DNA of 64,000 nucleotides from Escherichia phage vB_vPM_PD06, in sequence record NC_052653.1; one strand, given 5' to 3'. Position numbers and translations under genes: made by a program. Position 1 is the first letter of the stretch; each line of letters opens with the position of its first letter. Below are positions 37,805-59,875 of this stretch, in pieces. The notes beneath the pieces are model-generated. The model was not told the origin of the DNA and searched no databases. It saw only the letters and a program-made list of their open reading frames with translations.

Positions 37805-38173
37805 ATGAGGGTCACACGTTACGTTAGAAGTGAAACAATAGATGGAGGCATAATGTATGCTTTCTACGATGATAAAACTTTTTGTTCTGCATTCTATGAA
37901 GAAGACTTGTCTACGGAATGGCAACAAATCATCTTCTTACTTGACATTTTGAAAAGAAGAGATAACTTTGAAGGTATTGAGTGGACAGTGGGAGGCAAAG
38001 TTATCGTTGCAGGTTTAAGCAAACATGAGTTGCTTGACTTAGACTGTAAACTTTGTAATTATCAATTCTCAAAACGTTTACCATTAGAAAGACAGTTAGG
38101 AGTTGAGATTCATGTTGACTTGGGCGATGGAGTATCCTATACTCTCAACAATCATAGTGCTGACGTTAATTAG
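37805..38173 (+). CDS. hypothetical early protein
   Basis: 122 aa ORF, first gene of plus-strand block. Confidence 0.4.
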   Translation: MRVTRYVRSETIDGGIMYAFYDDKTFCSAFYEEDLSTEWQQIIFLLDILKRRDNFEGIEWTVGGKVIVAGLSKHELLDLDCKLCNYQFSKRLPLERQLGVEIHVDLGDGVSYTLNNHSADVN

Positions 38174-46165: not shown

Positions 46166-46198
46166 TACTTGACTTACTAATTTAATATGTGTTAATAT

Positions 46199-46227
46199 GC
46201 CTACCTACTTAGTTAGGTGGGCTTTTA
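46199..46227 (+). terminator. intrinsic terminator after rdgC
   Basis: GCCTACCTA-CTTAGT-TAGGTGGGC hairpin followed by TTTT. Confidence 0.45.
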
Positions 46228-46239
46228 AGGAGACACACC

Positions 46240-46452
46240 ATGAAAAAACTTCTTGTCGGTTTACTTCTAGTAATCAGTTCTTATTCTTATGCTGGTCAAA
46301 TAACTTTAATTAATTCTGGAGAACAAGTTTCTGGAAGTACAAAATACTGTTTTTACTCTAACGGTATGTACGACAAGGTTATAGAGGTTTCTGCAAGTCG
46401 TCAGTGTCCCTACACACGAACATTCTCAACAGAGAGTTCAGATGATGAATAG
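46240..46452 (+). CDS. small secreted protein
   Basis: 70 aa; N-terminal signal peptide MKKLLVGLLLVISSYSYA. Confidence 0.4.
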   Translation: MKKLLVGLLLVISSYSYAGQITLINSGEQVSGSTKYCFYSNGMYDKVIEVSASRQCPYTRTFSTESSDDE

Positions 46453-46460
46453 GAGGTAAT

Positions 46461-47579
46461 ATTAGCGGTTACATTTTAATCCAACCGGAAGACCTGCACA
46501 AATATGTTGACGAGAACACAATTCTTGCAATAGACTACGATCAAGTGGCGTTCCAAGCATCTTCGGCTTTAGAACAAAGAAAAATCCACGCTGTACACAA
46601 GGCTTCCGGTAATGTAAAAGAGTTTGAAACAAGAACAGATTTTTGGGGTAAATCTTCAAAAAATATTGGAGGATGGTTAGGAGCACTTAACGCGCAACGC
46701 GAAGCTGCTGGTAAGAAGTTGTTCTCTAGAGAAGATTTTGAAATAAAAGATGTTCAAATAGTCCCAGATAATATTTCTTTTACGTTTCAAGCTGCAAAGA
46801 CAAAAATAACCCAGATGATGGATCACCTAAAACTTCAAAAGTATTGCGGTGTCATCGGGGTAGGAAAAACCTTCCGGCATTCTTTCAAAATGCCAAAAGA
46901 ATATAAATCAGAACGATCAGATTTAAGACCAATCCATTTATCAGATACTAAAGATTATCTAGTTGAAAAACATAACGGTGACGTTGTTACTGGTATTGAG
47001 GCAGATGATGCTTTAGAAATCTATGGATATGCAGGGTATAAAGCCTACAAGGAAACTGGTAAGTTTTCTCATATTGTAGCATCTATCGACAAAGATAGCT
47101 TGCACACACCAAGTTTACTCTTTAACTTTTATAAAGAGGATGGTGTTTATAAAAATCCTTGTATTATTCTGATTGATGAATCTATTGGTGATATCTGGAT
47201 CGTAGAAAAAGGTAAGAAAAAAGAAATTAAGGGTTGGGGTAGTTACTGGTTAGCTTATCAAATGCTAATGGGTGATAAGACAGATAGTATTCGACCTTAC
47301 CAAGATTTCGATGTTAAGTTTGGAGATATTACTTGCTTTAATCTTATTTCCAAATGTAAAACACAGGCTGAACTTTTTCAGACAGTTAAAGATCAGTATT
47401 ATGAATGGTTCCCAGATGGCGTTAAATTTACTTCTTGGGATGGTGAAGAAGTAGAGATGACAACTGACGAATGGATAGAGACAATTTTTCAGTTGGTATA
47501 TATGAAACGTTGGGCGAATGATGAAACAACTTTTGAAAGTATGCTACAAGCATATATTTCAGAGCAGGAGGAACATTGA
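46461..47579 (+). CDS. rnh: RNase H / 5'-3' exonuclease (FEN family); 5' end uncertain
   Basis: GIEADD motif, LMGDKTDSI motif, and N-terminal ILAIDYDQVAF resembling the T4 RNase H N-terminus; conserved N-terminal residues lie upstream of the first in-frame GTG (46545) with no in-frame ATG. Confidence 0.5.
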   Translation: MSGYILIQPEDLHKYVDENTILAIDYDQVAFQASSALEQRKIHAVHKASGNVKEFETRTDFWGKSSKNIGGWLGALNAQREAAGKKLFSREDFEIKDVQIVPDNISFTFQAAKTKITQMMDHLKLQKYCGVIGVGKTFRHSFKMPKEYKSERSDLRPIHLSDTKDYLVEKHNGDVVTGIEADDALEIYGYAGYKAYKETGKFSHIVASIDKDSLHTPSLLFNFYKEDGVYKNPCIILIDESIGDIWIVEKGKKKEIKGWGSYWLAYQMLMGDKTDSIRPYQDFDVKFGDITCFNLISKCKTQAELFQTVKDQYYEWFPDGVKFTSWDGEEVEMTTDEWIETIFQLVYMKRWANDETTFESMLQAYISEQEEH

Positions 47580-51982: not shown

Positions 51983-52393
51983 ATGTCACTAATTAATACA
52001 ACCATTTGGGCGACCGTAAGTATGTCTACCATTAAGGCTACACCGATCTGGAAAGAAATGGCTAAAAAGCACGGAGGAAAAATTCCTCACGAGTATCATA
52101 ACACTACATTGCGAGCAGCATTAGTAATGCTTGGTATGTCTACCGATGGACATTATACAGTAGAACGTGGTGTTAATATTCGTAGTAACAACAATCGACG
52201 TGTGGTGTTTGCAAATACTACATTGTATACTTTCCCAGTTCGACAAGACTATAAATATAAGCGAATCTATCAAGGTGTAGATATTTTGCACTTTGGAGAA
52301 GAAGATTTTACAGGTTGGGGTAGCTCTCATATCAAAATGGAAGACTTCGGAAATGAACATGATCCATCACGAGATGATGATTCTGAATTCTAA
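51983..52393 (+). CDS. hypothetical protein
   Basis: 136 aa ORF. Confidence 0.4.
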   Translation: MSLINTTIWATVSMSTIKATPIWKEMAKKHGGKIPHEYHNTTLRAALVMLGMSTDGHYTVERGVNIRSNNNRRVVFANTTLYTFPVRQDYKYKRIYQGVDILHFGEEDFTGWGSSHIKMEDFGNEHDPSRDDDSEF

Positions 52394-59320: not shown

Positions 59321-59875
59321 ATGATTCAAGCAACAAAAATCGAAGATTTGTTGATCATTCAACCTGACGTTTACGGGGATGAACGTGGTTTTTTCTTAGA
59401 AAGTTTTAATCAGGCTTTATATGATCAATACATAGGTAAACAAAACTTTGTCCAAGATAACCATTCACGTTCTATTCGAGGAGTTCTACGTGGGCTTCAT
59501 TTTCAAAAGAAAAACCCACAAGGGAAGTTAGTACGTTGTGTTCGTGGTGAAGTTTATGATGTTGCTGTAGATATTAGGGTTGGTAGTCCAACATTTGGAG
59601 AATGGGTAGGTGTTCTTTTATCTGAAAAGAATAAAACACAATTTTGGATTCCTCCTGGTTTCGCTCATGGCTTTGTTGTGATTAGCGACATTGCTGATTT
59701 TGAATATAAATGTACAGAATATTACGATCCGACTTCAGAGTGTAGTCTTGCGTGGAATGATCCAGATATCAATATAGATTGGGGTTTTGATTTAATCTTT
59801 AATGATATTAATTTTAAACCTATCTTGTCACAAAAAGATCAGGAAGCCAAAACACTAAAGGAGATCATATTTTGA
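59321..59875 (+). CDS. rmlC: dTDP-4-dehydrorhamnose 3,5-epimerase
   Basis: 184 aa; LRGLHFQ motif and cupin-like pattern; position between rmlA and rmlD. Confidence 0.65.
   Translation: MIQATKIEDLLIIQPDVYGDERGFFLESFNQALYDQYIGKQNFVQDNHSRSIRGVLRGLHFQKKNPQGKLVRCVRGEVYDVAVDIRVGSPTFGEWVGVLLSEKNKTQFWIPPGFAHGFVVISDIADFEYKCTEYYDPTSECSLAWNDPDINIDWGFDLIFNDINFKPILSQKDQEAKTLKEIIF

Follow-up and report, generated by a model that had tools for sequence, protein, structure and literature searches.

An AUU codon as the probable translation start of a divergent flap endonuclease-like gene in phi92-like phages of Escherichia coli

In Escherichia coli, the codons AUU, AUC and AUA (collectively AUH) support about 1–2% of the initiation obtained with AUG, and the only confirmed AUU starts of this bacterium are those of infC and pcnB (bioRxiv 10.1101/063800). 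In both genes, the weak codon restricts expression and confers sensitivity to initiation factor 3 (IF3) (bioRxiv 10.1101/063800, PMC3592434). When an infC-like arrangement is present, in which a stop codon is followed after 3 nucleotides (nt) by AUU, reinitiation and de novo initiation contribute about equally (PMC3592434), and overexpression of IF3 also decreases reinitiation (PMC2268962). The present analysis concerns the start of a nuclease gene in a stretch of 64,000 nt from Escherichia phage vB_vPM_PD06 (sequence record NC_052653.1, one strand, 5' to 3'), which is referred to below as the window. The comparison of its relatives indicates that this gene is very probably translated from an AUU codon at position 46461. 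Literature searches for an ATT start in phi92, in phAPEC8 or in phages generally returned nothing relevant.

The nuclease frame, read from 46449 (ATA GGA GGT AAT ATT AGC), runs through 32 codons devoid of ATG, GTG and TTG until GTG 46545 is reached, as determined by reading the sequence and the list of open reading frames (ORFs), and the encoded protein is IGGNISGYILIQPEDLHKYVDENTILAIDYDQ-V(GTG)AFQ. The codons of the motif ILAIDYDQVAF occupy positions 46521–46553, and the frame translation places its ILAIDYDQ part ahead of the GTG. A preliminary description of this locus had stated that the conserved N-terminus precedes any AUG or GUG start, and this is confirmed, the first ATG, GTG or TTG in frame being GTG 46545. 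The same description had let the frame open just after AGGAGG; it opens 2 nt earlier, and AGGAGG lies inside it. The possible starts that had been listed (ATT, ATC and CTG) are all present, but the list was incomplete, as ATA also occurs and there are further ATT codons: the near-cognates ahead of GTG 46545 are ATA 46449, ATT 46461, ATT 46473, ATC 46479, CTG 46494, ATT 46521 and ATA 46530. The distance of 4 nt that separates AGGAGG, a Shine-Dalgarno (SD) sequence, from ATT 46461 is also the commonest spacing between GGAGG and a canonical start in the window (8 of 28 cases, range 1–12 nt). By reading of the sequence, no SD is visible ahead of GTG 46545, and since relatives carry ATC, ATA, ATT or GTT at its position, this GTG is not conserved as a start. 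When the window was scanned for ORFs having only near-cognate starts behind an SD, the nuclease was the sole long one, and short ORFs with a near-cognate start behind an SD were listed at 37991 and 60918. Two further candidates were rejected as comparable cases, one at 52073, which lies within a gene that starts with ATG, and one at 59869, which adjoins a TTG start. Folding of the RNA between 46420 and 46520 revealed no structure above chance (z = −0.8), and the idea of a hairpin-controlled start was dropped for this reason.

The extension of the protein upstream of GTG 46545 is almost certain. A tblastn search with the ATT-started protein yielded 1054 phage records, and most of the alignments start at query residues 1–21, that is, before residue 29. 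The alignment with the PHROG 107 'exonuclease' profile begins at residue 13 of the longer ORF (E = 1e-60). Two aspartates encoded ahead of the GTG, D25 and D27, are invariant both in an alignment of 35 homologues and in an alignment of 12 sequences of the clade defined below. In the AlphaFold model, which was built from the 35-homologue alignment, a strand (residues 5–7) and a helix (9–14) are followed by the first long strand (16–25), which ends at D25. A product started at GTG would, according to this model, miss the first strand of the catalytic domain together with the two invariant aspartates. Moreover, judging by its substitutions, the sequence 3' of the AUH codon is evolving as coding DNA. 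The pairwise differences in codons −21 to −13 amount to 74, 68 and 218 at the first, second and third codon positions, respectively; in the N-terminal codons glycine is written as GGT, GGC, GGG or GGA, and a serine codon changes from AGC to TCA among relatives. Because the variation is dominated by third positions and the residues are conserved, the S-G-Y/F codons that follow 46461 appear to be translated.

To locate the start itself, the corresponding regions of relatives were gathered from GenBank phages, IMG/VR contigs, a metagenome scan and contigs encoding metagenomic homologues. In the metagenome scan, a 20-nt pattern gave mostly chance matches, and 10 of the 36 matches to a longer nucleotide pattern were true relatives. 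The clade was taken as the relatives that have the same gene order and 47–100% protein identity, and it contains 20 distinct start regions. At the codon homologous to 46461, 11 of them have ATT, 7 have ATC and 2 have ATA, and none has ATG, GTG or TTG. All 20 carry a strong SD (AGGAGG, GGGGG, GAGGG or AGGAG) 3–5 nt before the AUH codon. The ATC of two lineages (L012/L018 and L078) has an in-frame TAA immediately before it, and therefore no upstream in-frame codon can be translated there. Upstream of the AUH codon the relatives differ by indels and frame changes, as is the case for a non-coding SD and spacer. Among 39 homologous protein clusters of at least 47% identity, not one had an N-terminus called as M(S)G[YF], which means that no canonical start is present at that codon in them. 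Beyond the clade, the same position is occupied by canonical starts: Vequintavirinae-like homologues have ATG, GTG or TTG followed by G-Y, which align with AUH-(S)-G-Y here, and in a relative of 47% identity (L058) the codon is TTG with TAG right before it, so that 'TTG AGT TTT' corresponds to 'ATT AGT TTT' of L057. In the wider family, which likewise favours weak starts, 38 distinct start regions comprise 7 with ATG, 7 with TTG, 4 with GTG and 20 with ATT, ATC or ATA. No in-frame ATG, GTG or TTG lies ahead of the required residues, the SD is found at a functional spacing in the window and in the 20 variants, and the AUH codon, which is the first that can be translated, is homologous to true starts in relatives. 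On this comparative evidence, AUU 46461 is very probably the initiation codon, and the rare ATT start at this position, which the preliminary description had offered as one of three explanations, is strongly supported.

Some of the start regions show peculiarities of their own. Across the wider family, with its outgroups L006–L009, L032–L052 and L058, a strong SD precedes each start by 3–6 nt. The ATG annotated in the L006 type follows AGGAGGA after just 1 nt, and the real start may be the next codon, a TTG at 4 nt. In L021–L026 and L028, whose start region reads 'TAGGAGGATGTTATT', an out-of-frame ATG opening an ORF of about 17 codons lies 0–1 nt after GGAGG and is probably too near the SD to be used. 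A subclade of 50–56% identity, comprising L053 (574–603), L054 and L059, has an SD followed by ATT or ATA, and 8–9 codons later an in-frame ATG devoid of an SD, which is the codon chosen by gene callers. The AUH codon is probably the start in this subclade too, because the peptide between this codon and the ATG, I-x-x-x-F-[KN]-T-I-S, is kept while its codons change synonymously.

Other positions of the start have to be weighed against AUU 46461. If translation began at one of the downstream near-cognates (ATT 46473, ATC 46479 or CTG 46494), the N-terminus would be shorter and D25 and D27 would be retained. In favour of this, all three candidates are in frame, relatives retain ATT, ATC or ATA at the Ile codons −19 and −17, and gene callers make use of a TTG that some lineages have at −12 or −18. 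However, the downstream near-cognates lie 16–37 nt from the SD, compared with 1–12 nt for the GGAGG-led starts of the window, the CTG or TTG at −12 gives way to CTT, TTA or CTA in relatives, and the codons from 46461 up to these candidates vary mainly at third positions with S-G-Y/F conserved, which makes such a start improbable. The database annotation, which places the start at GTG 46545 (in Phapecoctavirus, at an internal ATG) and would leave the similarity ahead of it untranslated, can draw on the fact that this GTG is the first canonical start and that every annotated record inspected uses its equivalent or a later codon. Such a start would nevertheless remove the two invariant aspartates and the first strand, it would have neither an SD nor conservation of the codon, and the 28 codons before the GTG evolve as coding. 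Moreover, canonical-start homologues begin 20–27 codons upstream of IDYDQ and not at the equivalent of 46545, so that the comparison with homologues suggested in the preliminary description turned out in favour of the longer protein, and the annotated start is highly improbable. A recoding event, readthrough or frameshift, by which the upstream ORF and the nuclease would be made as a fusion, is practically excluded as well. In several lineages the two ORFs share one frame with a single TAG or TAA between them, and a metagenomic gene call, P0002 (L015:1501–2835), is a fusion of 444 amino acids whose two parts are joined by a 'Q'. A normal TAG stands at this place in the DNA and the 'Q' stems from the gene call, and P0002 was thus rejected as evidence of readthrough and treated as an artefact; the gene caller apparently took the amber codon as sense in order to accommodate the long startless ORF. 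Furthermore, the window and L014 have the two ORFs in different frames, two stops separate them in L012 and L078, the upstream gene is a different one in L053, and a signal-peptide protein fused to a replication nuclease would be biologically implausible. The last alternative, that a sequencing or assembly error or the decay of a pseudogene destroyed the true start, has the missing canonical start as the only point in its favour. The identical sequence is present in independent isolates and in metagenomes (L001, L002, L010, L031, L089 and L091), the architecture is kept over 20 diverged start regions, the frame of 372 codons is intact and the fold is of high confidence. The sequencing error considered in the preliminary description is therefore ruled out, and pseudogene decay is scarcely credible.

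A further question is how ribosomes arrive at AUU 46461. According to one explanation, which is possible although rather less than even in its chances, termination-reinitiation is the main driver: ribosomes would leave the upstream ORF of 70 amino acids at its TAG and restart 8 nt further on. With the weak codon, the yield of nuclease would then depend on how far the upstream ORF is translated; this explanation is a variant of the preferred one, initiation at AUU, and does not contradict it. A same-strand upstream ORF ends 8–21 nt before the AUH codon in every clade member examined, in L053 the small ORF is replaced by a methyltransferase gene whose stop likewise falls within TAGGAGG, and in the infC-like stop-then-AUU arrangement about half of the initiation is due to reinitiation (PMC3592434). 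On the other hand, both the distance and the frame relation between the upstream stop and the AUH codon vary, a strong SD at optimal spacing would favour de novo initiation, and the gene packing is equally tight in outgroups with canonical starts, and therefore the proximity of stop and AUH is not specific to the clade. Reinitiation would not escape the control by IF3, because IF3 overexpression lowers it (PMC2268962). The coupling to the upstream gene that the preliminary description had proposed may thus stand as a contributing route, given the upstream stop 8 nt before the ATT.

Several observations weigh against initiation at AUU 46461 or against a purpose behind it. The downstream in-frame ATG of L053, L054 and L059 could serve instead of the AUH codon or in addition to it. 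Conservation of an Ile codon as ATT, ATC or ATA is equally expected of an internal isoleucine, and the argument that the AUH codon comes first rests on the upstream stops in two lineages, on the non-coding behaviour of the upstream sequence and on the homology with canonical starts in outgroups. The searched literature yielded neither an N-terminal peptide nor ribosome-profiling data. The rationale of the AUH start, whether low or IF3-sensitive expression or coupling, is one that we infer. Finally, the absence of ATG over about four or more inferred third-base changes has a probability by chance of P ~0.2, a rough value that assumes equal rates.

In the proposed mechanism, the AGGAGG(U) sequence would position the ribosome at AUU 46461, and the initiator tRNA would presumably decode this codon, giving an N-terminus fMet-Ser-Gly-Tyr-, while GTG 46545 would be read as an internal valine. 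The predicted N-terminal tryptic peptide is (f)M-SGYILIQPEDLHK, or SGYILIQPEDLHK once Met has been removed. The weak codon may keep low, or make IF3-sensitive, the output of a nuclease potentially harmful in excess. Such an output is likely because AUH codons initiate at about 1–2% of AUG and IF3 discriminates against them. The strong SD, possibly along with ribosomes terminating 8 nt upstream, would partly offset the weakness of the codon. Any AUH codon can become ATG by one third-position change that leaves the protein unaltered; ATC and ATA arose several times, ATG was never seen, and this pattern suggests, although with about four inferred changes not in a statistically firm way, selection against a strong start at this codon. 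A bolder and rather unlikely possibility is that AUH is an actively maintained device, the clade selecting against AUG and the nuclease being gated by the ratio of IF3 to ribosomes, by upstream ORF translation, or by the two together. If this were true, the codon would serve, at the level of translation, to time a replication nuclease or to limit its dose in the course of infection, and the locus would provide both the first phage case of infC-like IF3-sensitive control and, for an E. coli system, a natural use of AUC and AUA as starts.

With regard to the encoded protein, the evidence from structure modelling and homology indicates that the nuclease is a divergent member of the flap endonuclease (FEN)/5'-3' exonuclease superfamily, whose members combine a PIN-like nuclease domain with an H3TH element. 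Its AlphaFold model has a predicted local distance difference test (pLDDT) value of 95.6 and a predicted template modelling (pTM) score of 0.88, and both the model and Foldseek place an alpha/beta PIN-like (resolvase-like) fold in the N-terminal domain. The Foldseek search against the PDB gave 12 matches at E ≤ 0.001, headed by PLEX1, E. coli ExoIX, the T5 D15 flap endonuclease and Mycobacterium smegmatis Pol1; the fold resembles that of ExoIX with a probability of 1.00 and a target-normalised template modelling (TM) score of 0.55–0.59. Matches in BFVD include entries named 5'-3' exonuclease, PIN_53EXO and flap endonuclease. Nine acidic residues (D25, D27, E180, D182, D183, D210, D212, D272 and D275) are invariant in the 35 homologues; they form clusters of conserved carboxylates, one of them right after the first strand, for which metal binding is putative. 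In the family profile the EADD, DKD and GDxxD (GDxxDN) motifs align with the Taq 5' nuclease domain, and the set of acidic motifs D-x-D, EADD, DKD and GDxxD is common to the nuclease, T5 D15, ExoIX and the Pol I/Taq 5' nuclease (PF02739/PF01367). Compared with T5 FEN and ExoIX, the nuclease is very divergent, about 100 residues longer and equipped with extra inserted elements. Against Pfam (E ≤ 0.01), the window protein had only an unrelated sub-threshold match, and PF02739 and PF01367 were not hit; it matched no NCBIfam model and gave no significant match to PDB sequences. Among the 35 homologues, PF02739 was detected in 8 and PF01367 in 3, and the family profile has only weak matches to the Taq and T5 nucleases among PDB sequences (E = 0.02–0.1). 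As there is no direct match to a Pfam profile, the assignment to the FEN superfamily is made through transitive homology and fold. The RNase H-like 5' nuclease of the preliminary description thus holds at the level of the superfamily, and T4 RNase H itself was not recovered among the sequence or structure matches. T4 RNase H is a member of the same superfamily and has the same kind of N-terminal motif, a hydrophobic strand followed by Asp.

An AUU start implies that annotations beginning at the later GTG or ATG remove part of the active site. In none of the eight GenBank records inspected does the nuclease start at ATT, and all eight start too late. Three Justusliebigvirus records use the GTG equivalent to 46545 and give a product of 344 amino acids; two Phapecoctavirus records, a related Klebsiella phage and Serratia phage KKP_3264 (Justusliebigvirus) start about 143 residues in; and one record calls the nuclease from the TTG at codon −12. 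In the BFVD search, the two best entries were truncated models, A0A140G5U4 (344 amino acids) and A0A6B9WXG3 (229 amino acids). Standard gene callers are unable to call ATT, ATC or ATA starts. In the phi92/phAPEC8 group a core replication nuclease is, on the evidence for the AUU start, mis-annotated and shortened by 28 to about 143 residues, or by 11 where the TTG at −12 is used, with loss of at least the N-terminal strand and helix and usually of the first active-site motif too. About 130 GenBank records have at least 60% identity in tblastn, and cloning or modelling of the annotated protein would be predicted to yield a dead enzyme.

Coordinates of the proposed nuclease start and of adjoining features in the window
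Feature	Position	Strand	Remark
In-frame TGA closing the nuclease frame upstream	46446..46448	+	Frame opens at 46449
Shine-Dalgarno sequence AGGAGG(T)	46451..46457	+	AGGAGG = 46451–46456, within the open nuclease frame
Proposed start codon ATT (AUU)	46461..46463	+	4-nt spacer after AGGAGG
28 N-terminal codons missing from public annotations, (f)M/I-SGYILIQPEDLHKYVDENTILAIDYDQ	46461..46544	+	Model structure, coding signature
Codons of D25 (GAC 46533–46535) and D27 (GAT 46539–46541)	46533..46541	+	First acidic motif of a FEN-type active site (predicted)
GTG, start in GenBank (344-amino-acid product), here probably internal Val29	46545..46547	+	No SD, not conserved
Full proposed nuclease coding sequence, 372 amino acids and TGA stop, putative FEN-type 5'-3' exonuclease	46461..47579	+	
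ORF of 70 amino acids, Phi92_gp086 homologue, PHROG 4641	46240..46452	+	TAG stop 46450–46452 overlaps the nuclease SD
AGGAGG (47566–47571), 4-nt spacer, TTG (47576–47578), start of DnaQ-like subunit	47566..47578	+	

By megablast, the window belongs to Justusliebigvirus (phi92-like E. coli phages, Stephanstirmvirinae); the closest record is phage EC.P2 with 99.8% identity, and 53 records reach at least 95%. The genes of the module follow in the order RdgC-like recombination gene, small ORF (PHROG 4641), nuclease and DnaQ-like polymerase exonuclease subunit. By this gene order, the nuclease is part of the phage replication/recombination module, and it is an essential-looking enzyme of DNA replication. 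The ORF of 70 amino acids is syntenic in nearly all clade members, the first base of its stop lying 11–21 nt before the AUH codon. In the clade this small ORF is conserved at a length of 64–82 amino acids and has a signal-peptide-like N-terminus and two conserved cysteines (QCPYT motif); the place between an RdgC-like gene and a nuclease, which it holds in most clade members, is an odd one for a secreted-looking product. The TTG of the DnaQ-like subunit, which overlaps the nuclease stop (ATTGA), is a second weak codon that this module combines with a strong SD. GenBank records differ on where the RdgC-like gene starts, W22 having TTG 45260 and PHB05 and JohannJBalmer ATG 45281. In the gap that separates this gene from the small ORF, inspection by eye showed a hairpin with T's after it (cctacctacttagttaggtgggctttt) at 46200–46228; the Schickermooser record has a putative terminator annotated at the equivalent site, which the consensus scan performed here did not list. 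A weak promoter-like site was seen at 46169–46198. In the consensus scan for promoters and terminators, the sites were no more numerous than in shuffled sequence.

AUU starts and FEN nucleases are both already known, and what is particular to this case, as judged from the sequence comparisons, is the unusually deep conservation, the comparative support and the presence of AUC and AUA variants. A gene translated by E. coli ribosomes appears to have retained AUU, AUC or AUA down to about 47% protein identity, and it may serve as a natural, testable system for asking why weak codons with strong SDs persist and whether phages make use of IF3 discrimination or reinitiation. An internal AUU start that yields a shorter peptide was reportedly described by Nivinskas and co-workers in 1992 for the T4 baseplate gene 26. 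That start likewise belongs to an E. coli phage, but it is an internal, secondary one, whereas in the nuclease the AUH codon would be the sole start of the full-length enzyme and is conserved across the subfamily. There is a close likeness to infC and pcnB, in which AUU is combined with an SD as in the nuclease gene, infC also having an upstream stop a few nucleotides before its AUU. Unlike these two genes, the locus described here encodes a DNA nuclease of a lytic phage, its proposed start codon drifts between AUU, AUC and AUA, and no autoregulatory logic is apparent.

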